A stretch of 25,192 nucleotides of DNA from positions 1 to 25,192 of the IMG/VR virus record IMGVR_UViG_3300033232_000128; one strand, written 5' to 3'. The position numbers and the translations under genes were made by a program. The notes under the pieces were generated by a model. The model saw only the letters and a program-made list of their open reading frames with translations, was not told the DNA's origin and made no database searches. How positions within the stretch are numbered: position 1 is the first letter of the stretch; each line of letters starts with the position of its first letter. This document shows positions 3,578-25,192 of the stretch, in pieces. Source of the stretch: a virus (lineage: Duplodnaviria > Caudoviricetes).

Positions 3578-3579
3578 CC

Positions 3580-6862: not shown

Positions 6863-6874
6863 GGACTCCGGCTC

Positions 6875-7300: not shown

Positions 7301-7306
7301 CCCGAC

Positions 7307-7486: not shown

Positions 7487-7488
7487 CC

Positions 7489-8241: not shown

Positions 8242-8249
8242 GGTGAGTG

Positions 8250-8648: not shown

Positions 8649-8836
8649 TCCATGCCGGACACCGGCTGCCGGATGTCATGGACTACACGCTCGCGCAGAT
8701 GACCGCGTTTCTCGATGCCGAAATGCATCGTGGCCGTGAGCACGCCAGTCTGCTTCTTGGGGTGACCGCTGTGGCCAGCCAAGGCGACAAGCGATCCATC
8801 GAACGGCTGCAGCGGGAGCTCGATCGTGAAGATTGA
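8549..8836 (+). CDS. Tail assembly chaperone T-like segment, likely made as a G-T fusion (about 195 aa) by -1 frameshift
   Basis: The -1 frame is open from 8534 to 8836 and encodes 'WAHAIDRLIHAGHRLPDVMDYTLAQ'; slippery T TTT TTC at 8546-8552. Confidence 0.75.
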   Translation, partial: FRAAGGADDPARRRPDQRTNERPLGWAHAIDRLIHAGHRLPDVMDYTLAQMTAFLDAEMHRGREHASLLLGVTAVASQGDKRSIERLQRELDRED

Positions 8837-9467
8837 TCTGACAGCATCTGGACTGTTCGATGCTCGGCAATTCAATGCCTGGTCCACCGAGCGCCGCGAT
8901 GCCATTCGGGCGGCGCTCAAGCGCGGTATGCAATCCGGTGGCCGCGAAGTACGCGACGCGGCACGCACACAGATGCGCGGAGCGTTCAACGTCAAGCGCA
9001 ACAGCTTCGTCTCCTCGATGCAGGCCAAGGTGCTGGACAAGAAGACCGATCGCCTGCCCGCCTTGCTGGTGGGCAGCAAGATCGCCTGGCTGGGTCTGCA
9101 CGAAAAAGGCGGCACGGTCTCCGGCAATCTGCTGATCCCGCTGCTTCCTGGGCGGATCGGGCCTAAGCGCTTCAAGGCAGTGGTCGACGGCTTGCTGCGA
9201 TCAGGCAACGCGTTCTTCGTCGAAAAGAACGGCAAGGTCATCTTGATGGCCGAGAACATTCGCGAGAACGCATCCCAGCTCACTCGCTTCAAGCGGGCCG
9301 AGCGCGCTCGCACCGGAACCAAACAAATCAAACGCGGCCAGGAGATTCCGATCGCCGTGCTGGTCAAGTCCGTCTCCCTCAAGCGGCGACTGGACCTGAC
9401 CGGCGCTGTGCAGCGGTCGCTGCCGCGGTTGGCGAGCGCAATTCAAAAAGAACTGGCGAAATCCTGA
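8826..9467 (+). CDS. Basic phage morphogenesis protein (DUF6441-like, possibly gpZ-like; 213 aa)
   Basis: GTG start after GGGAG; Lys/Arg-rich; stop coupled to the tape measure ATG (TGATG). Confidence 0.65.
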   Translation: MKIDLTASGLFDARQFNAWSTERRDAIRAALKRGMQSGGREVRDAARTQMRGAFNVKRNSFVSSMQAKVLDKKTDRLPALLVGSKIAWLGLHEKGGTVSGNLLIPLLPGRIGPKRFKAVVDGLLRSGNAFFVEKNGKVILMAENIRENASQLTRFKRAERARTGTKQIKRGQEIPIAVLVKSVSLKRRLDLTGAVQRSLPRLASAIQKELAKS

Positions 9468-11974
9468 TGGCCAACAACCGCGCACAACTCCTGATCACCG
9501 CCGTCGATCAGACCCGTGGCGCCTTCGATTCGATCAAGCGCAATCTCGGCGACCTGGGCAACGCGGCGCGATCCATCAAAGGACTGCTCGGCACGCTCGG
9601 CCTCGCGGTGTCTGCGGCCGGTCTCGGCGCGATGGTCAAGGCCTCGCTCGACTCGGCGGACTCGCTGTCCAAGCTTTCGCAGCGGGTCGGGATCACTGTC
9701 GAGTCGCTGTCCACCCTGATCCCGGTTGCGGATCTGGCCGGTGTCTCATCCGAGAAGTTCGAGGGAGGCCTGCGCAAGCTCGCCACCCGCATGCTCGATG
9801 CCGCGACCGGTTCGGACGAGGCAGCACGCGGATTCGCAGCGGTCGGCGTCGCCATCCAGAACCAGGATGGGACGCTGCGCGCCACCGATCAGGTCCTGCT
9901 CGACCTGGCCGACCGCTTCAAGGCGATGCCCGATGGTGCCCAAAAGACCGCGCTTGCGGTGGATCTGTTCGGCAAATCGGGCGCCGACCTCATCCCGTTC
10001 CTCAACCAGGGGCGTGATGGCGTCGAGGCGCTGACGACGGAGTTGCAAGCCCTGGGCGTGCAGATGGGTGGCGCCACCGCTGTACAGGCCGAGGTGTTCA
10101 ACGACTCACTCGCCAAGGTGCGACTGGCGATCACGAGCATTGGCAACCGGGTGATCGAGGCCTTCTTGCCGGCCATGAACGACATGGCCAACGGGATGGT
10201 GGAGTCGGCCAAACAAGGTGGCTCGCTGCGCGCGATCCTCGATGGCGTGGTGTCGGTGCTCAAAACCCTGGCGCTGGGTGCCGCCACGGTAGGCAAGGCA
10301 TTCGTAGCGCTGGGCGAAGCGATCGGCGCTGGCATGGCGGCTGCTGTCGATGCGCTATCTGGCAACGTGTCCGGCGCGAAAGCCATCATCACGGAACTCA
10401 AGGGCAGCCTGGTTCAGCGCCTGGACGAATTGGCGAGCTTCCGCGACAGCCTTTTCGACCCGAAGCCGATCGAAGTGCGTGCGCCGACAATCGTTGCCGA
10501 TCCCACTCTGATCGATCGACTGCGCACACCCGGACGGGCTACCGGGGACAACGGAGCCGCACGACTGGCGCTGGCCAAGGCACAGGCGGATGCCGAGCTA
10601 AAGCTGCTCAAGGACGTGCTGGACCGGCAGTCGCGCAGCCTGGACGAGGCGCTCGATGGGCGGCTGATCTCGCTGGCGGACTACTACGCCGCCAAGACGG
10701 CCCTGGAAACGCGTGAGATCGATGCTGAGATCGCTCGCACACAGACCTTGTTGGCCGAACAGCAGCGCATCGCGGCGTCCGGTGCTGACGAAGGCGCACG
10801 GATCAAGGCCCGTGCCGAGGTGGTCAAGATCGAGGCCGACCTCATCGTGCTCAACAACAAGCGGGCCGATGTCGAGATCGCCAACGCGCGCAAAGCCGCC
10901 GACGCCGAGCGTGCCTTGCGTGATGAACTGGCCCGCGTTCGGGAGGCGCTGCTCGATCTCACCGGTGCTGCAACCGGTCAGGACCGTCGTGCTGCGCTCG
11001 AGCGCCAGTACCAGTCACTCATCGAGCGCCTCCGAGCCGAGGGCGACACCGAGGGTGTGGCCACTGTCGCGCGCCTGATCGACGTGAAGGTTGCGGCAGC
11101 GGATCTGGCCACCTATGAACGCCAGTTCAATGACGCGCTCAGCCGCATGCGGGCCACCGAGGAATCGATCAACCTGCAGCGCCAATCGGGCCTGCTCACG
11201 GAATCGCAGGCTCGCCAGCAGATCCTCGCGCTGCACCGGCAGACCGGCCAGTCGCTCGACGCGCTGCTGCCGCAGTTGGAGGCGACCGCCACGGCCATCG
11301 GCCCGGAGGCGGTCGCCCGGGTGCAAGCGTGGAAGAACGAGATCGCGCAGGTGAAGCTGGTCGTCGACGACGTGGCGCTGGCCATTGATGGCGCGGTGCA
11401 GGACGGTTTCGCGCAACTGTTCCAGGACATCGGCAGCGGGGCGAAGTCGGCCACGCAGGCGTTCGCGGATTTTGGTCGCTCGGTGCTGCAGACGATCAAC
11501 CGCATCGCCTCGCAGAGGCTGGCCGAAGCCTTGTTCGGCAGCCTGATGGGGGGCGGCGCGGCAAGCAGTGCCGGAGGCTTGGGCGCGTTGATCTCGTCGT
11601 TCTTCGGGTTCGCCTCTGGAGGCTACGTGACCGGCCCCGGCACCTCGACCAGCGACTCCATTGCGGCGCGGCTCTCGCATGGCGAGTACGTGGTCAATGC
11701 CCGCGCGGTAAGCCGGCTTGGGTTGTCGTTCCTTGACGCCATCAACGGTTTGTCTGCCGGGCCTCGCATCCAAGGCGGGCGCCTGGCCTTTGCCGCTGGT
11801 GGCCTGGTGCCGGAAGGCCAGGCGCAACCGGCCACGAACCAAAACATCCGCATCGTCAACGTTATCGACCCGGCGATGGCGGCCGACTACCTCAACAGCA
11901 GCGCCGGCGAGCGCACGGTGATGAACCTCATCCAGCGCAACGCCACTTCGGTGCGCAACATCTTGGGACGCTAA
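9467..11974 (+). CDS. Tail tape measure protein (835 aa)
   Basis: 'LLITAVDQT', 'ALAVDLFGKSGADLIPFLNQG', long Ala-rich helical region, C-terminal 'FASGGYVTGPGTSTSDSI.ARLS.GEYV'. Confidence 0.95.
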   Translation: MANNRAQLLITAVDQTRGAFDSIKRNLGDLGNAARSIKGLLGTLGLAVSAAGLGAMVKASLDSADSLSKLSQRVGITVESLSTLIPVADLAGVSSEKFEGGLRKLATRMLDAATGSDEAARGFAAVGVAIQNQDGTLRATDQVLLDLADRFKAMPDGAQKTALAVDLFGKSGADLIPFLNQGRDGVEALTTELQALGVQMGGATAVQAEVFNDSLAKVRLAITSIGNRVIEAFLPAMNDMANGMVESAKQGGSLRAILDGVVSVLKTLALGAATVGKAFVALGEAIGAGMAAAVDALSGNVSGAKAIITELKGSLVQRLDELASFRDSLFDPKPIEVRAPTIVADPTLIDRLRTPGRATGDNGAARLALAKAQADAELKLLKDVLDRQSRSLDEALDGRLISLADYYAAKTALETREIDAEIARTQTLLAEQQRIAASGADEGARIKARAEVVKIEADLIVLNNKRADVEIANARKAADAERALRDELARVREALLDLTGAATGQDRRAALERQYQSLIERLRAEGDTEGVATVARLIDVKVAAADLATYERQFNDALSRMRATEESINLQRQSGLLTESQARQQILALHRQTGQSLDALLPQLEATATAIGPEAVARVQAWKNEIAQVKLVVDDVALAIDGAVQDGFAQLFQDIGSGAKSATQAFADFGRSVLQTINRIASQRLAEALFGSLMGGGAASSAGGLGALISSFFGFASGGYVTGPGTSTSDSIAARLSHGEYVVNARAVSRLGLSFLDAINGLSAGPRIQGGRLAFAAGGLVPEGQAQPATNQNIRIVNVIDPAMAADYLNSSAGERTVMNLIQRNATSVRNILGR

Positions 11975-11976
11975 AC

Positions 11977-12948
11977 ATGGCCTGGACTTCCGGCACGGCA
12001 ACCAATGCCGCCGACCTCTTCAACAAACTGATCACCTTTCTGACCGCCGACGCGACCTTGGTCGCTGGCGGTGAGGCCTGGACGATGTTGCGCCGAGACA
12101 CCTTCACCCTTGACGCCAAACGCGATCTGGTGGAACTGCGCGGCCCAGGCTCCTCGGCGGGCGATGCCATCTATGTGCAGCTTTGCCTGTTCGCCGACGC
12201 GGCGGCACCCGCGTATTCGATCCGGGTTCTCGGCTCGCAATCGTGGCAAAGCGCCGTCTCGATCAGCACGCCGGAAGGCCAACCGGGCAGTTTGCTCTCG
12301 GGGGCCGGCTCAATCGGCATCGTGCCGAGGATGCCGGTGTTCAACAGCGCGATCAGCTACTGGTTTGTCGCCAACGGCCGGCGCTTCATCGTCGTGGCGA
12401 AATCCTCGGCTTACTGGGGCGCGCTTTACGCGGGCTTCTTCCTGCCCTACGGCACACCGTCGCAGTACCCGTACCCGCTGTTCATCGGTGCCAACACCTC
12501 GCGCGGCGACAACTATCAGAGTTCGGATCTCGACATCGCCAACAGCGCGTTCTGGCGCAACGATGGTGGATACGGCAGTTACAGCGCAGCGATTCTGCAG
12601 CCGAGCGGCGGCTGGGTCGGCACCAACCGCTTCGATACGACCTACACCGGTCGCGCCTGGCCTTGGGCGATGTCCTTGGAAACCAAAAAGACCAGTGTCG
12701 GGCGCTACGAGCTCGCGTCGTTGACGCAGTTGCCCAACGGCGCAAGCCCGCTGCTGCCAGCCATTCTCTACGACTGCGGCACCTCGCGTCCGTTCAACGT
12801 TTGGGGCGAGCTGCAAGGCGTATTCGCCGTGCCGGGTTTCGGGGTGGCCGCGGGCGACACAGTGACTGTGGCCGGCAAATCCCACCTGGTCGTCCAGGCG
12901 GCGACTTCCACCAATGCGGCGCGTTTTGCCGCCATCCAATTGGCCTGA
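11977..12948 (+). CDS. Virion structural/tail tip protein (323 aa)
   Basis: 'MAWTSGTA', 'YWFVANGRRFIVV', 'YAGFFLPYGTPSQYPYPLFIG', 'GELQGVF.VPG', as recalled for post-tape-measure proteins of D3112/YuA-like siphophages. Confidence 0.78.
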   Translation: MAWTSGTATNAADLFNKLITFLTADATLVAGGEAWTMLRRDTFTLDAKRDLVELRGPGSSAGDAIYVQLCLFADAAAPAYSIRVLGSQSWQSAVSISTPEGQPGSLLSGAGSIGIVPRMPVFNSAISYWFVANGRRFIVVAKSSAYWGALYAGFFLPYGTPSQYPYPLFIGANTSRGDNYQSSDLDIANSAFWRNDGGYGSYSAAILQPSGGWVGTNRFDTTYTGRAWPWAMSLETKKTSVGRYELASLTQLPNGASPLLPAILYDCGTSRPFNVWGELQGVFAVPGFGVAAGDTVTVAGKSHLVVQAATSTNAARFAAIQLA

Positions 12949-12957
12949 GGCGATTCA

Positions 12958-14100
12958 ATGGCTTACATCACCGGCGCGTCAGCGGACATCAACACACTGC
13001 TGAGCGTCATCAAGAATTTCGCTGTGGCCAACGGCTGGACTGCCAACGCTACCGACACCTTTACGCTGACTTTCCCGACCTCCTCGTTGAACGGGCGCGC
13101 GACCCACGCCAGCACGACGTCGATGATTTCTTCGGTCAGCGGCTCTGATGCGTACCGGAATCAGTCGGAAACCAGTCTCACAGCGAACCGTGTGGTGCTG
13201 ACCAAGAACGGCGTGTCCTACCAACTGTTCGCGGTCAATAAAAAGCTCTACAAGAATGGCGTCAACGGCACCTACGCCTGCCTGGAGGCATGGGTGTGCG
13301 ACGAATTCGCGACTGGTGTGGCCGCCAATCTGCAGACCAACAATCGCAAGTTCGTGATGGTCGGTCCGATGGCGACCTCGCTCTATGCCTACCACCTGTT
13401 CTCCAACGGCGATTTCGTCCATGTGGTGATCGAGGACACGCCGGGACGCTTCCGCCACCTGTCGTTCGGCTTCATCAACAAGTACGGCTCCTTTGCCGGA
13501 GGGCAGTACCTGACCGCAGGTTGCCCCGTCGAGTCATTTACGACGACGCCCTATGCGTTCAACACTTCGAATCAATCGATTCCGTTCGGAGCGAACAGGC
13601 AGGGGCCATCGCGGGCGTCGCTCGCATCGAACGGCTATCCCGGCAGCTACGTGCGGGCCGACATCGATGGCTGGACGGTCGGCTGGCGCCTCTTGACGAC
13701 CGGCTACTCGGATACCGCCAACCTCGATGTTTGCGGCTGCGCAACCTATGCGAATACGACGAACAATCGAGCGGGCTACATCGGGTCCGGGACCCAGAAC
13801 TCCCTCAACACCCTGGCGCACGATCTGGCTTACCACTGCTCCCCGCAAAGCTACAACGGTCTGGCGCCGATGCTGCCCTGCTATGTGGGCGTCAATCGCA
13901 CGCCCTACGTCGGCACCTGGACGCTACTCGGCGAATTCCCCGATGTGCGCTTCCTGAACATCTCGAATTTCAACCCAGGCGATGAGCTGATCCTCGGCGC
14001 CGACGTGTGGAAGATCTTCCCGCTGTGGAACAAGGCCTACACGCTCGGGGCGGAACCGATCAGCTACGACTACGGACTGGCCTACCGCAAGGTGGTGTAA
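12958..14100 (+). CDS. Virion structural/tail tip protein (380 aa)
   Basis: 'MAYITGAS', 'VVIEDTPGRFRHLSFG', 'LGEFPDVRFLNI....PGDE...G.D.WKIFP', 'YGLAYRK'; GAGG RBS. Confidence 0.75.
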   Translation: MAYITGASADINTLLSVIKNFAVANGWTANATDTFTLTFPTSSLNGRATHASTTSMISSVSGSDAYRNQSETSLTANRVVLTKNGVSYQLFAVNKKLYKNGVNGTYACLEAWVCDEFATGVAANLQTNNRKFVMVGPMATSLYAYHLFSNGDFVHVVIEDTPGRFRHLSFGFINKYGSFAGGQYLTAGCPVESFTTTPYAFNTSNQSIPFGANRQGPSRASLASNGYPGSYVRADIDGWTVGWRLLTTGYSDTANLDVCGCATYANTTNNRAGYIGSGTQNSLNTLAHDLAYHCSPQSYNGLAPMLPCYVGVNRTPYVGTWTLLGEFPDVRFLNISNFNPGDELILGADVWKIFPLWNKAYTLGAEPISYDYGLAYRKVV

Positions 14101-15783
14101 ATGCCCGACTTCGCCGGAGCCTTCACGTCAAACATTCTGGGCGGCGCAGCGCCCGCCGGGATGAACAGCCTGTGGGACGATGGTCGACCCGCGTACTACG
14201 CACCCACGACTGCCATTGCGGCCATTGCTGGTGCGGTCGCTGTCATCGCCAGCGGCCAGCCCTCAATCGAGGCCCTGATCGCGCGGGCCGGAGCACACTG
14301 CGGTTCGTTCTCGGACGACTACTACCACCGGATCTACCTGCAGCCGTCCAGGATCGAGTTCGGCAATCTCGTCATCCCTACAACCCGTACCGTCGAAGTC
14401 TGGAATGCGTTCCTGGACCCGGCGACGATCTTCCAATTGGATGGCGATACCGAAGGGCTGTCCCTGGGCTTCTTCCCGCCCGCGAGGATGCGGGGGCTGG
14501 AGGACATCTTCTACGAGGTCACGGCCACACTCGATGGCCCGAGCTTCGTCGATACGCTGCTGACCCTGCATTTCTCGGCCGGCGGAACACGGGATCTGGC
14601 GATCAGCTATGGCCGCGTGCTGGTCATGGGCCTGCTGCATGATTGGCAAGGCGGCTTCACCGAGCGGCTGGAATGGCACACCGACGTGCTGACGATGCGC
14701 GACGGTGGTGAGCAGCGGGTGCGGCTGCGGACCGATCCCCGGCGCTCGTTCGAGTTCGACGTGCTGGAGTACGGCAACGGTGGGCAGCTGGATCTCTTGA
14801 TGAACGTCTGGCAGTCGCGCGTCTATGCCGTGCCGGTGTGGACCGACAAGGCTTGGCTTGCGGCCGCCATCCATCCCGGCGACACGGTGCTGGCCGTGAG
14901 TACCACGGACCTGGACTATCACGCCGGTGGGCTTGCCATCGTCGGCTCAAGCGCTGGCGCCAGCGAGGCACTGGAAGTCCTGTCCCTGACCGCCGGGACG
15001 ATCACGCTCAAGCGCCCGGCGTTGGGGAATTGGCCTGCAGGCTCCTGGATCGCCCCGGCCCGGCTGGGACGGTTACCCGCCCAGCAGTCCGTCACCCGGC
15101 CAACGGCGGCGATCTCCCAGGCAAAACTGCGCTTCGAGCTGGAGGACCTGGCCTCGCCGGTGGCGGCGACGAATTCACCGATTCAGTACCGAGGCTACGA
15201 CACGCTGCTGCAGCACCCGAATCGGATCGAGGACGTCAGCATCGACTATCAGCGGCTCGTCGATGTGTTCGACCACGACACCGGTACGCCTGCGGTGATC
15301 GACATCCCGAACCGGCCCTTCATCGTGCGCCGCCACCAGTACCTGCTACCGGATCGCGCCCGGCTCACCGCGATGCGGGGCTGGCTCGCCGCTCGTGCCG
15401 GACGGCAGGTGCCTTTCTGGGTGCCGACCTGGGAGCGTGGCCTCGAAGTCGCCCAGCCCTTCGCCTTCGATGCAACGGAAATTCTGGTCCAGGCCCGGGG
15501 CTTCGCCACCTACTACCAGGCCATGCCCGGCCGGCGGGACGTGGCCTTTGTGCACAACGACGGCACCTGGACTCTGCGGCGGATCACCGCCTTCGAGTTC
15601 GTGGACGGGGTCGTCGAGCGGATGCGGATCGACGCCGCTCTCGGCGTGGCCTGCGTGCCATCCGATTTCCGGATCGTCTGCTTCTTGGAACTGGCACGGC
15701 TGGAGAGCGATGCCGTGGAATTTTTCTTCGAGACGGATCGTGTGGTTCAGGTGACTTTGCCTATTCGGAGCATCAACGGATGA
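14101..15783 (+). CDS. Tail assembly/structural protein (560 aa)
   Basis: 'FSDDYYHRI', 'VEVWNA', 'ERLEWHTDVL', 'EQRVRLR..PRR', 'GRQVPFWVP', 'ARLESDAVE'; starts immediately after the previous stop. Confidence 0.78.
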   Translation: MPDFAGAFTSNILGGAAPAGMNSLWDDGRPAYYAPTTAIAAIAGAVAVIASGQPSIEALIARAGAHCGSFSDDYYHRIYLQPSRIEFGNLVIPTTRTVEVWNAFLDPATIFQLDGDTEGLSLGFFPPARMRGLEDIFYEVTATLDGPSFVDTLLTLHFSAGGTRDLAISYGRVLVMGLLHDWQGGFTERLEWHTDVLTMRDGGEQRVRLRTDPRRSFEFDVLEYGNGGQLDLLMNVWQSRVYAVPVWTDKAWLAAAIHPGDTVLAVSTTDLDYHAGGLAIVGSSAGASEALEVLSLTAGTITLKRPALGNWPAGSWIAPARLGRLPAQQSVTRPTAAISQAKLRFELEDLASPVAATNSPIQYRGYDTLLQHPNRIEDVSIDYQRLVDVFDHDTGTPAVIDIPNRPFIVRRHQYLLPDRARLTAMRGWLAARAGRQVPFWVPTWERGLEVAQPFAFDATEILVQARGFATYYQAMPGRRDVAFVHNDGTWTLRRITAFEFVDGVVERMRIDAALGVACVPSDFRIVCFLELARLESDAVEFFFETDRVVQVTLPIRSING

Positions 15784-16583
15784 CCTATCAGAGCATCGAG
15801 GCGAGCGTCCATTCTGGCCAGCCGGTCGAGTTGTACCGGTTCGCGCTGGGAACGACCGTCTGGCGCTACACCTCGGCTCGGGATGCCCTGACCTACAACG
15901 GCGAGCAGTACATTCCGGCGCCGATCAGGCGCTCGGAGATCGAGCAGACGCAGGAGTTCGCCCGCGCGATGCTCAATCTCGAAGCAGCGCTCGACATCGC
16001 AGTAGTGCAGTCCTTCATCGTGACCCCGCCCGATGGCGTGCTGTCACTCACCATCTCTCGCCAGCACCTGGCCGACCCGGGTACCGAATTCATCACCTGG
16101 TGGAAAGGGCGGGTCGTGTCGGTGGTGTTCAGCGGCATCACGGTGCAGATGCGTTGTGAGCCGATTTTTACGACGCTCAAGCGTTCGGGGCGGCGGGCGA
16201 ACTACCAGATCAACTGCCGTCATCCGCTATACCACGGCGGCTGCAAGGTCAACGCGGCCGATTACAAGACGGCCGGCATCGTCGAGAGCGTGGCGGGGCT
16301 GGAGGTGACCTCGTCCGTCTTCCTGCCCAAGCCCATCGCTTGGTTCGTCGGCGGCAGGCTGATGGCCGCCGGGGCGCAACGAATGATCGTCGCCAGCTCC
16401 GGCGGCGCGGTGACCCTCTCAGCCCCAATTCCGGGACTGAAGGCAGGCGACGCGTTCGAGGCTTATCCGGGCTGCGACCACACGCTCACGACCTGCGCCG
16501 CCAAGTTTGGCAACCAGCTGAACTACGGCGGCTTTCCCTACATCCCGGTGAAGAATCCTTTCACCGGGGACGCCATCGTTTAA
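15780..16583 (+). CDS. Baseplate hub / phage BR0599-family protein, gpL-like (267 aa)
   Basis: ATGA overlap; 'PVELYRF', 'C.H.LY..GC', 'YPGCDH....C..KFGN.LNYGGFPYIP.KNPF'. Confidence 0.88.
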   Translation: MTYQSIEASVHSGQPVELYRFALGTTVWRYTSARDALTYNGEQYIPAPIRRSEIEQTQEFARAMLNLEAALDIAVVQSFIVTPPDGVLSLTISRQHLADPGTEFITWWKGRVVSVVFSGITVQMRCEPIFTTLKRSGRRANYQINCRHPLYHGGCKVNAADYKTAGIVESVAGLEVTSSVFLPKPIAWFVGGRLMAAGAQRMIVASSGGAVTLSAPIPGLKAGDAFEAYPGCDHTLTTCAAKFGNQLNYGGFPYIPVKNPFTGDAIV

Positions 16584-16592
16584 GGATTTTCC

Positions 16593-16823
16593 ATGTGGCA
16601 ATACCTGATCGTGTGGGTGATCACGACGGTCCTGTCGTCGCTGCTCGCCCCGAAACCCAAGACCACCACGCCACAACCCGGCAATGTCGATGCGCCGGTC
16701 GCCGCCACCGACAGCCCGATTCCCGTGTTGTTCGGTACGCGGACGATCAAGCAGCCGAACTGCGTCTGGTTCGGCGATGTGCGGACGACGCCGATCAAGA
16801 CCAAGGGAGGCGGCAAGAAATGA
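16593..16823 (+). CDS. Small tail assembly protein (76 aa)
   Basis: Hydrophobic N-terminus, 'PIPVLFGTR.I..PN.VWFGD'; AAGGA RBS. Confidence 0.8.
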   Translation: MWQYLIVWVITTVLSSLLAPKPKTTTPQPGNVDAPVAATDSPIPVLFGTRTIKQPNCVWFGDVRTTPIKTKGGGKK

Positions 16824-17059
16824 GCGAACAGCACAGTCCCCGGCAATTCGCCACCCACCTCGATGCCAAGTCCCTCGGCTATTGCAATGCTGGGCTGCGC
16901 CGCTGGTTTCCGCGCGATGGCGTGACTTTTGAGGATTTTCGGCAACAAGGCGTGAGCACCGGCTGGCTGCGGGCCACCGGAGATGCGATGGCCATCCGGC
17001 TGGCCGAGCACGTCGAGCAGCAAGCCAATTCTGTAACGAGTGAGGCAGCGAAGGCATGA
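16820..17059 (+). CDS. Small phage tail protein (79 aa, MSEQHSPRQF...YCNAGLRRWF...ATGDAMAIRL)
   Basis: ATGA overlaps at both ends; GGGAGG RBS; 'C..G.R.WF' and 'GDAMA' pattern. Confidence 0.78.
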   Translation: MSEQHSPRQFATHLDAKSLGYCNAGLRRWFPRDGVTFEDFRQQGVSTGWLRATGDAMAIRLAEHVEQQANSVTSEAAKA

Positions 17060-19278
17060 GCGGCGGTGGCAAAGGCAGCAAGAGTGTCACCGTCGGCTAC
17101 CGCTACTACGCGGGAATGCATCTGGCGCTGTGCCACGGCCCGGTCGATTCGCTCAACAAGATCGTGGTCGGCGAGCGCACGGCGTGGTCGGGGTCGCTGA
17201 CGTCCAGCGGCCAGATTGCCATCAACCAGCCCGACCTGTTCGGCGGCGATGACCGCGAGGGCGGTATCGTCGGCGCCGTGGATCTGGTGATGGGCAACGC
17301 GGCGGACGGTCAGAACGACTACCTCGTGGCCAAGCTGGGCGCCAATGTGCCGGCTTTCCGGGGCGTGGTGTCGCTGGTACTGCGTCAGCCGCAACTGTCG
17401 GCGATGAACCCCTATATCAAGCCCTGGAGCGCGGAAGTCACGCGGATCATCCGGCGGTCCGACGGTTCGCCGCAGTGGTACTCGGACAAGGCGGCCATCG
17501 CCGGCGACATGAACCCGGCGCACATCATCTACGAGTGCCTGACCGACCGCACCTGGGGCCGGGGCTACAGCTCGGCCGAGATCGACGATGCGTCGTTTCG
17601 CGCCGCCGCCGATACGCTCTACGCCGAGAGCTTCGGCTTGTCGATCCTGTGGAATCAGCAGCAGGACATCGAGGCCTTCCTCGAGCGCATCCTGCAGCAC
17701 ATCGACGGCTCGATTTATGTGAGCCCGCGCACTGGGCTGTTCACGCTCAAACTGACCCGCGATGACTACGACCCGGCAATGCTGGTGGAGTTGAACCAGA
17801 CCAGCGTGATCGGGCTGGAGTCATTCGAGCGTACCTTGCCCGAGGAACTGATCAATCAGGTCACGCTGTCCTACCACGACCGCACGACCGACAAGAGCGT
17901 GTCGATCTCGGTGCAGGACATCGCCGGCATCGAACGATCCTTGGGTGAAATCAAGGACGCCAAGGTCAGCTACGAGGGCGTGGCCAATGGTGCTCTGGCC
18001 GCGCGCCTGGCGATGCGGGATCTTCGGCAGCTGTCGTCCACTTTGGCGAAGATCACGGTGGTGGCCAACCGCACCGCCGCCAGCCTCAACATCGGCGACG
18101 TGTTCAGGTTCTCCTGGCCCGAGTTGCGGATCGAACAGTTGATCCTGCGGGTGGCGCAGATTGGCTACGGGACGCTGGCCGACGGCCGGGTGCGGATCAC
18201 CTGCGTCGAGGATGTGTTCGGCCTGCCCGATGCCGTTTATCTGGCGCCCGCCGAGAGCGGCTGGGTCGATCCCCGGCAAGCACCCATCGCCGCGAACTTC
18301 GTGTCGGTGAGCGAACTGTCGTACTGGACGATTGTTCATGAGATGACGGGCGAGTCGGCCGCCGCTCAGGCCGAGATTGATCCGAATGGCGGGTTCCTGT
18401 CCGTCTCATCCGTTCGGCCCTCGGATGCGGCGATCAACTACGCGGTGCTGACCCGGCAGGGCTCGGCGGCCTTCGAGAAGATCGGCGTCGGTGATTTCAT
18501 TCCCTCTTGCGTACTCGCCACTGACATCGGGCAAACCGAGACAGCGCTGAACGTGCTCTACGGGGTCGATCTGGATCTGGTCACGTTCAACACCTACGCG
18601 CAGGTCGGCAGCGAGTTGGTCGCCGTGAAAGCGGTCAATTTGGCCGCCGGCACGGTGACGGTGGACCGGGGCGTGCTGGACACGGTGCCAGCGAAGCATT
18701 TGGCCGGTGCCCGGCTGTACTTCGTCGAGGGCGGGCAGTTCTACAACACGAGCCAGTACCTGAGCGGTGAGACGGTGCAGACCAAGGTGCTGCCTGCCAC
18801 CGGGATGGGCGTTCTGGCAGAGGCGTCGGCGCCGACGATCAGCTACACGTTCGCCAAGCGGCAGATCCGGCCCTATGCGCCCGGCAAGTTCAGGGTCAAC
18901 AACCTCGACTACAGCGTGAGCTACATCACTGAGGAAGTGACGGTCAGCTGGGCGCACCGCAGCCGGGTGCTGCAGACCGCCTATCTGGTGACGCAAGGGG
19001 AATCGAATATCGGGCCGGAACCCGGCACGACGTACACCGTGCGGATCTATGGCGAGGCGGGGACGCTCAAGCATACCGAAACGGGACTGACCGGCACGAG
19101 CTGGACCTATCCGATGGCCGCCGAGATTTCCGAGAGCGGCCTGAATCGGCCGAACGAGAAATTGACCATCAAGGTTGAGGCAATGCGCGACGGCCACACC
19201 AGCTGGCAGACCCAACAAATCGACATCCCCGAGTGCCGGGGCTACGGGATGTTCTACGGGGCAAGTTATGGGCAATGA
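17056..19278 (+). CDS. Tail tip / host specificity protein (gpJ-like phage tail protein, 740 aa)
   Basis: 'VGYRYYAGMHLALCHGPVD', 'LFGGDDREGG', 'DMNPAHIIYECLTD..WGRG', 'VDRGVLDT', 'SWAHRSR'. Confidence 0.88.
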   Translation: MSGGGKGSKSVTVGYRYYAGMHLALCHGPVDSLNKIVVGERTAWSGSLTSSGQIAINQPDLFGGDDREGGIVGAVDLVMGNAADGQNDYLVAKLGANVPAFRGVVSLVLRQPQLSAMNPYIKPWSAEVTRIIRRSDGSPQWYSDKAAIAGDMNPAHIIYECLTDRTWGRGYSSAEIDDASFRAAADTLYAESFGLSILWNQQQDIEAFLERILQHIDGSIYVSPRTGLFTLKLTRDDYDPAMLVELNQTSVIGLESFERTLPEELINQVTLSYHDRTTDKSVSISVQDIAGIERSLGEIKDAKVSYEGVANGALAARLAMRDLRQLSSTLAKITVVANRTAASLNIGDVFRFSWPELRIEQLILRVAQIGYGTLADGRVRITCVEDVFGLPDAVYLAPAESGWVDPRQAPIAANFVSVSELSYWTIVHEMTGESAAAQAEIDPNGGFLSVSSVRPSDAAINYAVLTRQGSAAFEKIGVGDFIPSCVLATDIGQTETALNVLYGVDLDLVTFNTYAQVGSELVAVKAVNLAAGTVTVDRGVLDTVPAKHLAGARLYFVEGGQFYNTSQYLSGETVQTKVLPATGMGVLAEASAPTISYTFAKRQIRPYAPGKFRVNNLDYSVSYITEEVTVSWAHRSRVLQTAYLVTQGESNIGPEPGTTYTVRIYGEAGTLKHTETGLTGTSWTYPMAAEISESGLNRPNEKLTIKVEAMRDGHTSWQTQQIDIPECRGYGMFYGASYGQ

Positions 19279-19293
19279 CACAAGGAGAATGAC

Positions 19294-19647
19294 ATGGCAG
19301 CACTGCAAGGCCCGAACCTGGGCCTGAACTACGGCTGGACCGCCCGCGAGTCGGGGTGGAATGCCGGAATGGATGCCAACCTCAAGCTGCTGGACGCCGT
19401 ACTGCAGTTGTCGGTGAAGTCGCGCGCGCAAACCACGCCGCCGACCACGCCAACGAACGGAGACCGATACATCGTGGCGGCCAGTCCGACCGGTGCCTGG
19501 GTCGGAAAAGCCGGCCAGATCGCCGTGCGCATCGATGCGGGATGGTGGTTCTACGCCCCGAAGATCGGCTGGACCTGCTTCATCGAGGACGAGGGCGTGC
19601 TCTCAGCCTACAAGGCCACCGGCTGGAGCGCTGGCCTCGCCATCTGA
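19294..19647 (+). CDS. DUF2793-like protein (117 aa)
   Basis: 'LDAVLQLSVKS', 'TPP..P..GDRYIV...TGAW.G..GQIA', 'W.F..PK.GW'; AAGGAG RBS. Confidence 0.85.
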   Translation: MAALQGPNLGLNYGWTARESGWNAGMDANLKLLDAVLQLSVKSRAQTTPPTTPTNGDRYIVAASPTGAWVGKAGQIAVRIDAGWWFYAPKIGWTCFIEDEGVLSAYKATGWSAGLAI

Positions 19648-19666
19648 TCATTACTTTCGCCCACCT

Positions 19667-19700
19667 GAAACCCGCCCCTCGAGGCGGGTTTCGCATTTCT
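19667..19700 (+). terminator. Stem-loop between tail and lysis modules, probable intrinsic terminator
   Basis: GAAACCCGCC-CCTCGA-GGCGGGTTTC perfect 10-bp stem (19667-19692) followed by GCATTTCT. Confidence 0.65.
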
Positions 19701-19711
19701 GGAGACCACCC

Positions 19712-20014
19712 ATGAATGAACCTGACAGCAAACCAGCGCTCGTCGAGAACCTGCTCCTGCTGCGCAAGGAGGACTTCGACGAACTGCTTGTCCACGCCGC
19801 CGAGCGTGGCGCGGAACGCGTCCTGTCCCACCTCGGCCTGGAAAACGGCCACGCCGCCCGCGACATCCGGGAGTTGCGCGATCTTCTGCAAGCGTGGCGC
19901 GACGCGCGCCGCACTGCGTGGCAGACGGCAGTCAAGGTGGCCACCACCGGCATCCTGGCCGCGTTGCTGGTCGGTGCCGCCATCAAGCTCAAGCTGATGG
20001 GAGGCCCCCAATGA
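19712..20014 (+). CDS. DUF6127-like membrane protein, possible holin or antiholin (100 aa)
   Basis: GGAG RBS; 'AAERGAERVL..LGL', 'DIRELRDLL.AWR', one C-terminal hydrophobic helix. Confidence 0.8.
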   Translation: MNEPDSKPALVENLLLLRKEDFDELLVHAAERGAERVLSHLGLENGHAARDIRELRDLLQAWRDARRTAWQTAVKVATTGILAALLVGAAIKLKLMGGPQ

Positions 20015-20493
20015 TCGAGACCTTGCTCGGTGGCCTTTTGGGCGGAGCCTTCCGTCTCGCGCCTGAGATCCTCAAGTGGCTCGACCGCAAGGGCGAACGC
20101 GGCCACGAGCTTGCGATGCAGGACAAGGCGCTGGAGTTCGAGAAAATTCGTGGTGCCAGTCGAATGGGGGAGATCGGTGCAAGTGCCGACCTGGCCTGGA
20201 ATAACGGTGCGATGGAGGCTTTCAAGGAAGCGGTTGCTGGCCAGGGCAGGCCATCGGGTGTGAAGTGGGCTGATGCGCTGTCCACAACGGTTCGACCCGT
20301 GGTGACTTACCTGTTTGTTCTCATGTACACCGGGGTCAAACTGGCAACTTTTGTGGGATCTGTTCAAACAGGCGTTGGATTTGGATCTGCACTTCTTGCT
20401 GCATGGTCAGGTGCAGATCAAGCATTGCTGTCTGGCATTCTGAACTACTGGTTCTTGAATAGAACCCTGGAAAAAGCCCGGGGTGGCCTGTAA
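20011..20493 (+). CDS. Putative holin (160 aa, MIETLLGGLLGGAFRLAPE...)
   Basis: ATGA overlap, GGAGG RBS; 'VRPVVTY' and 'ILNYWFLNR' motifs with hydrophobic segments; upstream of the endolysin. Confidence 0.72.
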   Translation: MIETLLGGLLGGAFRLAPEILKWLDRKGERGHELAMQDKALEFEKIRGASRMGEIGASADLAWNNGAMEAFKEAVAGQGRPSGVKWADALSTTVRPVVTYLFVLMYTGVKLATFVGSVQTGVGFGSALLAAWSGADQALLSGILNYWFLNRTLEKARGGL

Positions 20494-20763
20494 TGGCTCG
20501 AACAGGCAGGCCAGAAACACCTATGCGCATTCGATTTCTGGCGAAAATTGCGATTAATGACGGACAACATGGACGATATGGTCGCTAAAGGTCGCGCTGC
20601 CCATAATCGTGGCGAGCGCAACGGAACAGCGAGATTGAATCGATTGCAAGTTGAGTTGATTCGCCTTAGCAACGACACCCATGAGCGACTCGCAGAGTGT
20701 TTTTCTGTTTCTGCGACGACGATTGAATTGATCAAGCGGAGGCAGCCATGGGCGCACTTGTAG
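20493..20763 (+). pseudogene. HNH homing-endonuclease remnant with internal deletion and frameshift
   Basis: N-terminal fragment MARTGRPETPMRIRFLAKIAIN (ATG 20493, stop 20586-20588) is joined out of frame to 'TDNMDDMVAKGR...RGERNGTARL...LAECFSVSATTI..IKRRQPWAHL', the typical post-HNH tail. No HNH core is present. Confidence 0.72.
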
Positions 20764-21224
20764 TCCCCCAAGCAGCCGTGGTACTGGCCAAGCGCTTTGA
20801 GGGGTTCCACCGCGTGCCGAAGGCCGATCCTGAACGCGCCCACCCGTACATCTGCCCGGCAGGGTTTTGGACGATTGGCTATGGCCATCTGTGCGAGTCG
20901 ACGCACCCGCCGATCACCGAGTTCGAAGCAGAAGTCTATTTGGCGCGTGACCTGCAGACGGCCTTCGCAGCAACGCTGCGTTACTGCCCGGTGCTGGCCA
21001 CCGAGCACGAAGCGCGGCTCGCGGCTATAGTGGATTTCACGTTCAACCTTGGGGCTGGGCGGCTGCAGTCGTCTACGCTGCGGCGACGGATCAATCAGCG
21101 GGATTGGCAGGGCTCGGCTCATGAGTTGCTGCGCTGGGTTTATGCGGGAGGCAGGATATTGAATGGCCTGGTTGTACGACGCGAGGTCGAAAGTGAGCTC
21201 GTAAACCAGCCCGGCTTACGCTAA
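20748..21224 (+). CDS. Endolysin, phage lysozyme (GH24, 158 aa)
   Basis: 'KRFEG', 'YICPAGFWTIGYGH', 'AIVDFTFNLGAG.L..STL', 'RWVYAGG..L.GLV.RR..E'; GGAGG upstream. Confidence 0.95.
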   Translation: MGALVVPQAAVVLAKRFEGFHRVPKADPERAHPYICPAGFWTIGYGHLCESTHPPITEFEAEVYLARDLQTAFAATLRYCPVLATEHEARLAAIVDFTFNLGAGRLQSSTLRRRINQRDWQGSAHELLRWVYAGGRILNGLVVRREVESELVNQPGLR

Positions 21225-21227
21225 AAT
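21199..21227 (+). promoter_or_regulatory. Possible sigma70 promoter for the methyltransferase gene
   Basis: -10 TAAAAT at 21222-21227 (5/6 match, overlapping the lysozyme stop); weak -35 TCGTAA at 21199-21204; 17-bp spacer. Confidence 0.35.
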
Positions 21228-21229
21228 GT

Positions 21230-21252
21230 GTGTTCACAAATGTAGTGAACAC
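21230..21252. promoter_or_regulatory. Inverted repeat GTGTTCAC-N7-GTGAACAC, candidate operator
   Basis: Perfect 8-bp arms in a 40-bp intergenic gap, 12 bp upstream of a gene starting with an XRE-type HTH. Confidence 0.7.
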
Positions 21253-21264
21253 GCCACATAAAGC

Positions 21265-24200
21265 ATGCCAAAATCGACCAAAGAACAAATTTCAAGCCAC
21301 GGCCAACCGGGATCTGACGACCAGGGGGCATTGGCCGTCGCTGCGGCACCTGGAAATGGCTGCGGCCGTCTTTTGCGGGACCGCCGCCAAGAGAAGGAGA
21401 TTTCCCTTACGTCTCTAGCTGAGACACTTGGCTACGCAAAATCTTATCTCAGCATGCTCGAAAGCGGGCAGAGGCATCCAACCGACGAACAGTTTGAGGC
21501 CCTTTCAATCGCGCTTGAAGTTCCAGCGGATTTGCTGCGTGTTGCCGCAGGTAGACTGCCGCCTGATGTAGCAAGTGCCGTCCCGGGAAGGGTTGACGCG
21601 ATCGTGTCTGCTATTCGACGTGACGATTCCGGCGCAAAAGTCACGTTCTCGCGAAATCTTTCAGACAGCTTTCAGCGGCATATTCAGGAGAAAATATGTG
21701 ATGCGCCATCCAGCGATATAGGTCCATTCCTGGATCACTTGCGAGCTGGTAAGAATACACAGGCATATCGCGCGCACAGCTATCACACGAAGGTTCCACC
21801 CGAGGCCATCGATAAGCTCGTCCGCCATCACACAAGTGAGGGGCAAATCGTTGCAGATCCATTCTGCGGCAGCGGGATGACAGGGGTGGCTTCTATTCTT
21901 GCTGGCCGACATGCGGTGCTAAGTGACCTTTCTCCAGCGGCGGTACACATTGCACGAAACTACGTGAGTCCGTGCCAACCGGACGCATTTGTAAAAGCCG
22001 CAGCCAGAGTCATGGAGCGTGTGCGCCCAACTCTGAGTTGGCTCTACGAGACAGGAACTCCAGCCTCACGCTCCCGCGTCGAGTACACAGTTTGGAGTGA
22101 TGTATTCCAGTGTGGTCACTGCGGTGGTGAGATCGTCTATTGGGTTGGCGCGCGAGACCCCGTTTCGGGTGCAGTAGTCGACTCCGTCACTTGCCCTGTA
22201 TGTCGTCGTACAAGCCAGAAACGAGAGCTTAGATGGGTTGGGGAGCGTCCAGTTGAGACTAATGCAAAAGGCCCAATTTCAAGAGATGCTCATCCTCCGA
22301 CCAATGCGGAGCTAGAACTCATTCAAAGGGCAAACAGCAGTGAGATATTGCATTGGATCCCACAAGTACCTTTTGGTTCCGCGCGCGAAATGTGGCGGGC
22401 AGGACACTCGGCACAGGGAGTTAACTCCGTTGCAGACTTTTATACCAAGCGTAATCTTCACGCACTTTCAGCAATTCGTCACACTATTCAGGAGGAGAGA
22501 GACGAACGGCTACGTTCGGCGCTTCTCTTTGCATTCACCGGAATGGTCAATCGTGCGTCAAAGAGATACCAGTGGAACGTAAAGCGGCCTACTAACGTGA
22601 TGACGGGAACGCTATACATCTCGTCGTTGCGGTATGAGTGGAATGTAGGCAGTCTTTTAGAGAGAAAGCTTCGTGATGTAGAGAGGTACTTCAAGCATTT
22701 AGGAGGACCGAATAGTCGAGCCGAGGTGGTGAAATCTTCTGCGACAGATCTGTCGCATCTTCCAGATGGGTCAATTGACTATGTGTTTATGGATCCACCA
22801 TTTGGGTCGAATATTTTCTATGCCGATAGCAGCCTACTTTGGGATGCGTGGCTCGGGGCGTTGACTGACGAGCGAGAAGAAATTGTCGTAAATAAGCATC
22901 GCACACCAAGAGAAGGCGGTAAAACTATATCGGACTACCAACGACTGATGACAGGTGCATTCAAAGAAGTCTCGCGAATTCTTAAACCCAGCTCTTACGC
23001 AACGTTACAGTTTAATAATTCAAACGATGAAGTGTGGTGTGCGATTCAAGATGCATTAAGCGATGCAGGTCTTGAAGTTCGTCATGCAATTGGGCTCGAT
23101 AAGATTCATCCATCCATAAAAGGTGTAAAAGGCCTTCAAGCCAAGGAAAATGTTACCTCCCTTGATGCACTTATTGAACTGCGTCGCCGCCCCTCAACGC
23201 GTGCAGCAGCTGAGCGAGAGTCATCATCTGCTGATCAGATCAGATCAGCACTCATTGACTTCTCAAAGAACCAAAAATCCCCCTTTACAACTGATGAGGC
23301 ATTCGCATCATTGATCCGGTCATCACTCAAACTAGGAAATTCATTGAACGGTATTTCGATTCAGGCGGTAAAGGAGCTCTGTAGTAAGCTGTTCATCGAG
23401 TCTGGAACGAAATGGGTCCCCTCGAAAGAATTTTTAGAATCAGAAAAGAAATATGATCACGTCGCATCTCCATTTGGCTGCGTGGCTGAGCGCTACTTAA
23501 CAACGGACGCCGACCTCAATGGCTTGTTAGACACCACGCGGCCTGCTCCAGACGTAGGTGGTGAACCGCCTCGAGTTGTTTCAGGACAGCGAAATACGGC
23601 TCTATACAACGCTCACAGTTATCACACCAAGGTGCCGCCAGAGGCTATTACTCCTTTCATTAAACACTTCAGCCGCCCTGGAGATGTTGTCCTTGATCCA
23701 TTTTGTGGGACAGGAATGACAGGGGTTGCTGCACAAATGTCAGGACGTCGTGCTGTGCTCAGTGATTTGTCTGTGGTCGCAACCCATCTTGCTTACAACC
23801 ACACTCGACCATGCAATACTAGAGATCTGCAAAAGGCATTCGATGAGATTTCAGCTGACCTCGGTGCTGAATTCAGAGAAATTTATGCCTGCGTAGATGG
23901 TGATGAGCGCGGATATATTCTTTATACGCTCTGGGGACGTGATGCAGCTTGCCCACACTGCAAGCAAAACTTTTCAATTTGGGATTCAATTGATCGCGAA
24001 ACTGGCCGTATGCCAGCTGCACTTATTTGCCCTAAATGCGGCAAGGAAAGCGCCAAACATGGCTTGAAATACACCATAAACAGGCCAGTCCTTCTAAGCT
24101 ACAAGCGCGCGAACGGAAAACGTGTCGAGCGCGCACCAACCGCAGAAGACATTGCAATTATCCAGGAGCAATCGTCGGTAGCACCAACGAATTGGTTTCC

Positions 24201-25192
24201 CGAAGTTGATATTGATGCTACTCGAGAGATGTACATCCGATCTGCGCTTCACTTGCAGGGCATTGAGAGTATTTCTGATTTCTATATGCCGCGCAATCTT
24301 CGCGCTCTTTCTAGGCTCTGGGCCCGCATACAGCAAGTAGGCGATGAGCGTGTGCGTGCAGCGTTGACCTTCGCCTTCACCAATACGTCTTGGCACGGAA
24401 CGCGGATGAGGCGCTTTAATGCACGGGGTGGTCAACGACCACTTACAGGCACGTTGTATGTCCCGCAGCTGTCATCGGAGGCCAATGTCCTCGAGGTAAT
24501 GCGCAACAAGATCCGACAACTGCGTTCGTATTACGAGGCCCTTGGAAATCAGGACGGTCCCCTTCCTGCCATTCGTTTGGGGTCGGCGACTAGGCTTTCC
24601 GGGATTCCAGACTCCAGTATCGATTATGTTTTTACCGATCCTCCATTTGGCTCAAATCTCTTTTACGCAGACTGCAATCTCATTTGGGAATCCTGGCTTG
24701 GTGGTTTAACACCACAACAAGAGGAAGCTGTCGTCAATCGTTCTCGTGATCAGTCCCGAGGAGGAAAAACAGTGGCGGACTACGAGTCGCTGATGTCAGA
24801 TTCGATGCGCGAAATTTTCCGCGTTCTGAAACCTGGCGCTTGGGCGACCCTCGTCTTCCATAACACTGATCCAGCCATTTGGCGGGCGATACAAACTGCT
24901 GCTGAATGCGCTGGTTTCCAAATTGAAGATGCGGGAGCGCTTGACCGGAAGCAGCAGAGCCACAAGGGCTACAAAGGCCGAGAAGAAAAAGAAGGCGTTG
25001 CTCATTTTGACGTGATCATGTCGATGCGCAAACGGACCACGCCTAGCACGAGAGTGCGACGAATTATGGCAGCAGCGAACGTCAAGCAATTGGTGGTTGA
25101 TACGTTCAAGGCGTTGCCAGTGGATTCACGTACTGTTCAGCGCGTCCATTCTGAGGTCATTCAACACCTCGCTCGCGAAGGGTACGATCTCG
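21265..25192 (+). CDS. XRE-HTH fused to two tandem amino-DNA methyltransferase units (probably N6-adenine), at least 1309 aa, 3'-truncated by the window
   Basis: Manual frame-1 translation has no stop from ATG 21265 (upstream TAA at 21259) to the end. HTH 'LRDRRQEKEISLTSLAETLGYAKSYLSMLESGQRHP'; unit 1 DPFCGSG (21856) and DPPF (22792); unit 2 DPFCGTG (23695) and DPPF (24637); two CxxC pairs in each. Start codon uncertain because there is no clear SD. Confidence 0.93.
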   Translation, partial: MPKSTKEQISSHGQPGSDDQGALAVAAAPGNGCGRLLRDRRQEKEISLTSLAETLGYAKSYLSMLESGQRHPTDEQFEALSIALEVPADLLRVAAGRLPPDVASAVPGRVDAIVSAIRRDDSGAKVTFSRNLSDSFQRHIQEKICDAPSSDIGPFLDHLRAGKNTQAYRAHSYHTKVPPEAIDKLVRHHTSEGQIVADPFCGSGMTGVASILAGRHAVLSDLSPAAVHIARNYVSPCQPDAFVKAAARVMERVRPTLSWLYETGTPASRSRVEYTVWSDVFQCGHCGGEIVYWVGARDPVSGAVVDSVTCPVCRRTSQKRELRWVGERPVETNAKGPISRDAHPPTNAELELIQRANSSEILHWIPQVPFGSAREMWRAGHSAQGVNSVADFYTKRNLHALSAIRHTIQEERDERLRSALLFAFTGMVNRASKRYQWNVKRPTNVMTGTLYISSLRYEWNVGSLLERKLRDVERYFKHLGGPNSRAEVVKSSATDLSHLPDGSIDYVFMDPPFGSNIFYADSSLLWDAWLGALTDEREEIVVNKHRTPREGGKTISDYQRLMTGAFKEVSRILKPSSYATLQFNNSNDEVWCAIQDALSDAGLEVRHAIGLDKIHPSIKGVKGLQAKENVTSLDALIELRRRPSTRAAAERESSSADQIRSALIDFSKNQKSPFTTDEAFASLIRSSLKLGNSLNGISIQAVKELCSKLFIESGTKWVPSKEFLESEKKYDHVASPFGCVAERYLTTDADLNGLLDTTRPAPDVGGEPPRVVSGQRNTALYNAHSYHTKVPPEAITPFIKHFSRPGDVVLDPFCGTGMTGVAAQMSGRRAVLSDLSVVATHLAYNHTRPCNTRDLQKAFDEISADLGAEFREIYACVDGDERGYILYTLWGRDAACPHCKQNFSIWDSIDRETGRMPAALICPKCGKESAKHGLKYTINRPVLLSYKRANGKRVERAPTAEDIAIIQEQSSVAPTNWFPEVDIDATREMYIRSALHLQGIESISDFYMPRNLRALSRLWARIQQVGDERVRAALTFAFTNTSWHGTRMRRFNARGGQRPLTGTLYVPQLSSEANVLEVMRNKIRQLRSYYEALGNQDGPLPAIRLGSATRLSGIPDSSIDYVFTDPPFGSNLFYADCNLIWESWLGGLTPQQEEAVVNRSRDQSRGGKTVADYESLMSDSMREIFRVLKPGAWATLVFHNTDPAIWRAIQTAAECAGFQIEDAGALDRKQQSHKGYKGREEKEGVAHFDVIMSMRKRTTPSTRVRRIMAAANVKQLVVDTFKALPVDSRTVQRVHSEVIQHLAREGYDL

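Follow-up and report, generated by a model that had tools for sequence, protein, structure and literature searches.

What would a prophage-like element keep a two-part DNA methyltransferase for, when the gene stands directly behind the phage lysozyme and the end of the contig cuts off its neighbours? The question is raised by the window analysed here, the entire 25,192-nt contig IMGVR_UViG_3300033232_000128, which carries in order terminase, lambda-type portal, S49 protease, head decoration, major capsid, tail, DUF2793 and lysozyme genes. An initial annotation had reported a large open reading frame (ORF) missing from the gene track after the lysozyme. It read the frame as an HTH (helix-turn-helix) domain joined to two amino-methyltransferases (hereafter M1 and M2), an autoregulated, two-specificity relative of the BREX type 3 enzyme PglXI/BrxXI that served an effector further downstream or acted alone against restriction. 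The frame is real: from an ATG at 21265, 41 nt past the lysozyme stop (21224), it runs without a stop for 1,309 codons to the window end. We consider it probable that the HTH and two BrxXI-type units, placed in a defence slot, form a self-repressing modification arm that would shield the cell's own DNA from a neighbouring MTaX1/PbeABCD-like machine by methylating one asymmetric site on both strands.

Two intact methylase units behind one HTH

The N-terminal HTH and the two homologous units, 613 aa apart, were recovered by Pfam, self-comparison and motif scan at the positions claimed earlier (Table 1). M1 and M2 share 40% identity across 511 aa (E 2e-130), and each carries HSYHTKVP (residues 171 and 784), motif I (198 and 811), CxxC pairs (283/310 and 896/922), DPPF (510 and 1125) and R.LKP (571 and 1186); the succession of motif I, insert and motif IV supports the proposed alpha-class amino-methyltransferase order. 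All 121 proteins checked have such motifs with DPP(F/Y) in each of their two units, which excludes the C5-methylase class. A sister locus, L082, encodes a 93% identical protein that extends 34 residues beyond the last residue of the window. The ratio of nonsynonymous to synonymous substitution rates (dN/dS) against this sister gene is 0.03–0.07 in the two units; the catalytic motifs are under purifying selection, and because of these low values both M1 and M2 look functional.

No stop or frameshift separates the units. A 21.7-kb contig of sequencing run X1, about 98% identical to the window gene, differs at 85 letters over 20973–25192 and has 12 nt inserted in the linker, which keeps the frame; the run is possibly related to the source of the window and its contig is not counted as independent. 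The methylase gene has a GC content of 0.51, against 0.63 in window positions 1–20000, as expected for acquired cargo.

A palindrome upstream of the HTH-bearing genes

A palindrome separates lysozyme and methylase (Table 1). In the general form GTTNAC-N7-GTNAAC it stands before the 29 HTH-bearing genes that have upstream DNA, exactly in 26 and with at most one mismatch in all 29, compared with 2 and 9, respectively, of 1,108 random windows of those loci; having been read by eye from the same loci in which it was counted, it measures conservation and is no independent prediction. Upstream of 22 split loci that lack the fused HTH, no match had fewer than two mismatches. This conservation makes the autoregulation suggested earlier likely, and the HTH would bind the palindrome and repress its own promoter as M.SsoII and Ecl18kI do. 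Autorepression by HTH-methylases is established for Ecl18kI and SsoII (PMC12707154).

The cassette beyond the window

An effector downstream, one of the two options offered initially, was borne out by L082 and the near-identical X1 contig. L082 shares 88% nucleotide identity with window 20784–25192, lysozyme included, and a lysozyme 83% identical to that of the window precedes its methylase gene. Beyond the methylase, on the opposite strand and convergent with it, lie genes for a 119-aa protein, a 653-aa ABC-ATPase, a 68–77-aa ORF, a 713-aa nuclease-helicase and an HTH_17-MTaX1 protein; the last gene is a divergent MTaX1-HNH. Orthologues of the two large proteins match PbeA (1e-205) and PbeC (6e-241) in PADLOC, and the two MTaX1 genes match PF20296 (E 3e-22 and 3.6e-17). 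The 119-aa protein had zero hits in sequence-profile searches. Its model (mean predicted local distance difference test score, pLDDT, 88.6) aligns with DndE 7x4e at Z 11.2 and a root-mean-square deviation of 2.9 over 105 residues and with DndE 5wtu at Z 10.0, the next match reaching Z 7.7, and Atlas assigns the protein to a DndE cluster at 0.92. The predicted structure matches a DndE fold, as would suit the PbeD cognate. Dnd modification genes were not seen among the ORFs of the L082 cassette.

The X1 contig aligns unbroken over L082 1305–11620, and because it is near-identical to the window, the Pbe/MTaX1 operon almost certainly follows the methylase in the window's own allele too. Among the 19 closest loci, a DndE-like gene and PbeC lie downstream of the methylase in 14 (13 directly, and L003 after an inserted operon), a count that includes the near-copies L085 and L086; the remaining five comprise two truncated loci, two with MTaX1-HNH and one lone unit.

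Two side observations concern these loci. The operon inserted between methylase and Pbe genes in L003 (4903–8731) is Menshen-like, with MTaX1 fused to GmrSD_N/NsnA and then NsnB. In L082, the cassette closes at 12395–12475 with what looks like a tmRNA 3′ end and a strong terminator, a possible attachment site; numerous unrelated contigs pile up at this point. ARAGORN found 0 genes in 19 loci and Rfam gave no confirmation of an attachment site at the presumed prophage boundary.

Table 1. Coordinates of the methylase gene, its surroundings in the window and the Pbe-like genes of the sister locus L082
Feature	Position	Strand	Evidence and remarks
Phage lysozyme	window 20748..21224	+	PF00959 E 1.6e-31; final gene of the morphogenesis/lysis block; left border of the cargo slot
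Palindrome GTTCAC-N7-GTGAAC, predicted HTH operator	window 21232..21250		ends 14 nt before the methylase ATG
HTH-M1-M2 double DNA amino-methyltransferase	window 21265..25192	+	3′ end lost at contig end, about 34 codons missing
XRE-family helix-turn-helix	window 21373..21537	+	residues 37–91; Pfam HTH_3 PF01381 E 1.5e-10; dN/dS 0.12 vs L082
Methylase unit M1	window 21745..23199	+	motif I 21856; Cys4 insert 22111–22203; putative specificity loop 22549–22599; DPPF 22792; dN/dS 0.03–0.06
M1 helical tail and variable linker	window 23200..23580	+	lowest internal conservation, mean identity 0.33 in alignment A1
Methylase unit M2	window 23581..25038	+	motif I 23695; Cys4 insert 23950–24039; putative specificity loop 24382–24441; DPPF 24637; dN/dS 0.03–0.07
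PbeC-like ABC-ATPase with coiled coil and zinc hook	L082 6037–7998	convergent to methylase	DndD-like E 1.6e-52; CPAC at residue 341
Small ORF, 68–77 aa	L082 8001–8234	convergent to methylase	expected place of PbeB between helicase and ATPase; zero profile hits
PbeA-like HKD nuclease-SF2 (superfamily 2) helicase	L082 8203–10344	convergent to methylase	TIGR04095 E 8.5e-93; HxK, Walker A and DEVH motifs

A constant partner and a changing nuclease module

Our neighbourhood survey drew on a GTDB scan that confirmed 582 loci, 79 of which were retained, on two plasmid loci, and on metagenome and viral loci. It distinguished 48 double-methylase loci, whose two units are either fused or encoded side by side, from 37 single-unit loci. 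Left out were the broken or truncated L036, L041, L048, L052, L056, L059, L068 and L101, the near-copy L086, the short contigs L084, L087, L089, L090, L092, L094 and L096–L098, and L093, which is not a double; neighbour profiles were built from the surveyed loci themselves, and family names were checked separately. MTaX1 is present in 44 of 48 double-methylase loci and 0 of 37 single-unit loci. PbeA and PbeC occur together in 21 of the 48 doubles; nine have an McrB-like ATPase paired with a protein of 650 aa, and four a DUF2357/PD-(D/E)XK McrC-like gene. MTaX1 is the constant element across the double-methylase loci, and the nuclease module varies. The BREX genes PglZ and BrxC show the reverse distribution, with 0 of 48 doubles against 22 and 23, respectively, of the 37 singles.

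The partner of about 650 aa follows the McrB-like ATPase in actinobacterial loci (L050 6054–8042, L001 15744–17750 and seven more). Two copies were scanned, without a match in Pfam, PADLOC or NCBIfam; Atlas gave a weak lead, to PD-(D/E)XK McrC-like clusters at 0.79. Separately, two lone M2 units with the conserved loop described below appear in phage-like settings, one in a replication module that also has a primase, where DnaB helicase and DNA polymerase A flank it (L093 9914–11869), the other behind phage structural genes on an IMG/VR contig (L102 9905–12025). Both are candidates for anti-restriction capture.

Origin of the tandem methylase

The kinship to PglXI/BrxXI that had first been proposed is supported by a 747-bit match of the PADLOC PglXI profile to the window protein and by the tree of methylase units. 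In that tree of 119 units (FastTree, midpoint root, Shimodaira–Hasegawa (SH) support, without bootstrap), M1 (43 rows) and M2 (44 rows) form reciprocal clades with SH 99. Their branching is mirrored across phyla, and 32 BrxXI-like single units fall outside. The fused forms are nested among split pairs, and the tree points to a single old duplication of a BrxXI-like gene. The layout of the BrxXI-type fold agrees with both window units, as judged by sequence alone; when solved structures were searched with the methylase, matches were limited to motif stretches.

At least 120 homologue clusters were found. The best 120, at 49–93% identity and nearly all full length, come from metagenomes, Burkholderia, Cupriavidus, Caballeronia, Methylobacterium and others. 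Among the best 150 representatives at 50% clustering, only three are full-length fused doubles, which makes the fused form one coherent clade. The combination had been described initially as unrecognised; this does not hold. The PADLOC profile PDLC03312 (MTase_II, Type II methyltransferase) spans the whole HTH-M1-M2 arrangement, aligning protein residues 33–1304 with profile positions 61–1315 of 1344 at 1,397 bits, and neighbourhoods of methylase, MTaX1 and CxC/Pbe genes have already been printed as predictions. PADLOC restriction–modification (R-M) profiles probably go back to REBASE entries; the available portions of PMC9252829 and PMC8565338 gave no confirmation of this, and the enzymes and specificity behind PDLC03312 could not be traced in them. 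NhaXI was a false lead.

Relatives of other architectures were also seen. P0247 (1,289 aa) and P0277 (1,323 aa) join a gamma-type N6 methylase (N6_Mtase/Eco57I) to a BrxXI-like unit. The singles nearest the M1/M2 pair, at L035, L044, L046, L053, L058 and L060 and mostly from Chloroflexota, share a conserved operon in which a gene for a protein of about 1,310 aa lies upstream and a PglZ-like gene for one of about 900 aa stands beside the single methylase.

Near-frozen loops within the inserts

Within the insert of each unit, the loop that we define as the stretch between FAFT and TGTLY behaves unlike the catalytic regions. Catalytic regions have mean pairwise identities of 0.54–0.62 in M1, M2 and singles alike. 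Loop identity is 0.13 among the 32 single units, 0.87 in M2, whose loop was never a search pattern, and 0.82 in M1, a figure biased by a GTDB-scan search pattern that fell within the loop. In a whole-protein search, the M1 loop is kept in 118 of 121 proteins and the M2 loop in 120 of 121; a pattern-free profile search returned 150 representatives, of which 31 have one or both of these loops and 119 have others. We take the loop as the putative specificity determinant because it is hypervariable among singles, and infer a single conserved asymmetric site of which each unit would read one strand. The two specificities of the initial annotation are better read as probable strand specificities of one site. 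A search for the target by k-mer depletion, comparing 37 cassettes with their flanks, gave no convincing site.

Proposed role and competing explanations

In the self-protection scheme that we favour, the HTH would hold its own promoter in check, and the two units would divide the strands of a single site between them, one strand per unit; the site may be fixed family-wide. MTaX1 would be the constant partner, reading the site or its methylation state on behalf of an interchangeable effector. Here the effector would consist of the PbeA HKD-nuclease/SF2 helicase, a scanning pair of PbeC and DndE-like PbeD, a small putative PbeB and, in addition, the MTaX1-HNH nuclease, and the cassette would protect the lysogen from other phages. 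For the methylated base, N6-adenine on both strands (N6-methyladenine, m6A) is somewhat favoured; a mixture of m6A and N4-methylcytosine (m4C) is rather unlikely and m4C alone a little more so. DPPF is not decisive for the base, as some m4C enzymes carry it. BrxXI itself is classed as an alpha-class N6-adenine enzyme (PMC12839542).

Several points weigh against this scheme, beginning with the bias in the M1 loop figure and the palindrome read by eye. The effector genes lie outside the window itself, a sigma-70 and terminator scan of 20400–21500 found nothing, and the base-reading role of the loop is drawn from its pattern of variability. Pbe genes occur in under half of the double-methylase loci and are not an obligatory partner. 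Methylases linked to Pbe/CxC systems have been called cytosine C5 or circularly permuted N4 enzymes (PMC10853773). Finally, in the DndCDEA-PbeABCD system of Haloterrigena, cells lost protection but grew without impairment when dndCDEA was deleted, and cleavage of viral DNA was not observed (PMC6459918); as loss of the modification was non-toxic and cleavage was not seen in this archaeal system, plain self-protection may be the wrong logic.

The strongest competitor, which we judge unlikely, is that MTaX1-HNH alone is the true cognate restriction enzyme of an ordinary two-methylase Type II system, with the Pbe operon a separate defence system nested in the cassette. This would accommodate the limited spread of PbeA and PbeC (both in only 21 of 48 loci) as well as L009, L014, L095 and L096, where the methylase is directly followed by genes containing MTaX1 (Pfam identifies MTaX1-HNH in L009, L095 and L096) and Pbe genes are absent. 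However, the Pbe operon is itself headed by HTH_17-MTaX1 in L004, L007, L082 and L083, and the close loci L004 and L083 have Pbe genes with one MTaX1 gene but no MTaX1-HNH in the DNA examined.

The archaeal deletion result also favours a second explanation: instead of shielding DNA against self-cleavage, the methylase would be needed by Pbe as a subunit or would license its activity, the part that Dnd modification plays for archaeal PbeABCD. The fixed pairing of M1 and M2 and their helical tails could then be docking surfaces. We regard this as improbable: elsewhere the same methylase pair stands beside McrBC-like and HNH nucleases, which fits classical protection, and the PbeA of L082 retains its HxK nuclease motif and its helicase motifs.

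It is very improbable that the two units methylate independent sites, or that the gene stands alone as a phage methylase directed against restriction. The lone M2 units in the replication module of L093 and behind the structural genes of L102 do show a single unit in phage-like company, but M1 and M2 branch in mirrored fashion across phyla, and GenBank phages yielded zero matches to the window methylase. IMG/VR scans yielded zero full-length relatives and six single-unit loci only. For this locus, the solitary enzyme offered by the initial annotation is rejected on its neighbourhood, as the near-identical contig has the Pbe/MTaX1 operon next to the methylase. That the gene is the PglXI/BrxXI of a BREX type 3 system, as the 747-bit profile match and the BrxXI-like insert and Cys4 layout (PMC12839542) might suggest, is scarcely credible given that the doubles branch apart from singles and none of their 48 loci has PglZ or BrxC, and BREX type 3 membership was rejected on that neighbourhood.

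Returning to self-protection, a wider version of it is possible though doubtful. The BrxXI-type pair and the MTaX1 reader might constitute a self/non-self platform of fixed specificity, directed to one site in several phyla and open to unrelated effectors (PbeABCD, McrBC-like pairs, HNH, the Menshen-like fusion); phages might counter it by capturing M2 alone, because the site is fixed. If true, PbeABCD would here be licensed by methylation for the first time, and a BrxXI-class enzyme would gain its first defined target.

The slot behind the lysozyme

We surveyed 80 IMG/VR loci with a related lysozyme, of which 44 have at least 1.5 kb downstream, and scanned 62 proteins from 35 of the 44; nine loci were skipped as near-copies or for having few ORFs. 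A PADLOC hit at E ≤ 1e-25 stands directly after the lysozyme in 26 of 35 sister prophage loci, an upper figure for true systems, as some hits are generic helicases or methylases. The matches cover Type I, II, IIG and III R-M, BREX types 1 and 3, Qat, PD-T7-3, DUF1156 and PDC candidates. Judged by these profile matches, the post-lysozyme slot is a defence hotspot of this lambda-like prophage family, with the window cassette as one occupant, and a source of further defence genes. Nine of the 35 loci (L119, L120, L122, L123, L127, L144, L148, L151 and L159, within the series L105–L184) have no hit at this threshold, and undescribed systems are possible there.

Two further features lie on the left side of the slot. 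Window 20494–20763, between a holin-like gene and the lysozyme, is a stretch of lower GC containing a 71-aa ORF (20548–20763) that we take to resemble a remnant of an HNH homing endonuclease; Pfam and PHROGs searches with it returned nothing significant. The X1 contig has 721 additional letters within the lysozyme gene.

Comparison with known systems

A search for published experimental studies of an HTH-M1-M2 methylase, a methylase-paired Pbe system or the post-lysozyme slot found none, most subscription papers being outside its reach. Predictions of Pbe systems linked to a methylase date from 2019 and 2024, and the window cassette belongs to this predicted, apparently untested kind. Methyltransferases were found near 155 of 320 solitary pbeAC loci, and a pairing with methylation was proposed (PMC6459918). 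Since 2019 it has thus been an open proposal that PbeABCD may pair with DNA methylation instead of phosphorothioation. With its small size of about 11 kb, its place behind a phage lysis gene, a predicted operator and two catalytic sites that can be mutated one at a time, the cassette lends itself to testing that proposal. It would also supply a target site for the BrxXI class, which is described from sequence and models and called less explored (PMC12839542).

The closest likeness is to the CxC ABC-ATPase/DndE systems with methylases and MTaX1 described in PMC10853773, which cites Krishnan 2020. With these PbeABCD-like systems the cassette shares the HKD-SF2 helicase PbeA, a small candidate PbeB, the coiled-coil ABC-ATPase PbeC, a DndE cognate, MTaX1 and an adjacent methylase (PMC10853773, PMC6459918). 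It differs from the described methylase-linked CxC systems in its PbeC hook, which is CxxC. The available text of PMC10853773 says nothing of a tandem BrxXI-type enzyme fused to an HTH, of an operator or of carriage by prophages; its supplement or Krishnan 2020 may depict the architecture. Among profiles, MTase_II (PDLC03312) shows full-length likeness, including the HTH and both units. The alpha-order core, insert of about 250 residues, Cys4 zinc finger and DPP(F/Y) recall BREX type 3 BrxXI (PMC12839542), from which the window enzyme differs in being duplicated and HTH-fused, with a shorter C-terminal tail, a frozen rather than hypervariable loop and no BREX genes.

Classical R-M systems offer further parallels. 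M.FokI is a fusion of two methylase units. The LlaJI and SsoII methylases make 5-methylcytosine, and those of FokI are Dam-like. The restriction modules of LlaJI, FokI and SsoII/Ecl18kI differ from that of the window cassette. Protection of an asymmetric site by two methyltransferases is established for LlaJI, which likewise combines two methylases for one such site with an NTPase-nuclease partner, and the N-terminal HTH is shared with M.SsoII/Ecl18kI, for which autorepression is known (PMC12707154). To these precedents the present analysis adds a predicted operator, near-frozen loops, a constant MTaX1 partner, lone phage copies of M2 and a slot that is a defence hotspot.

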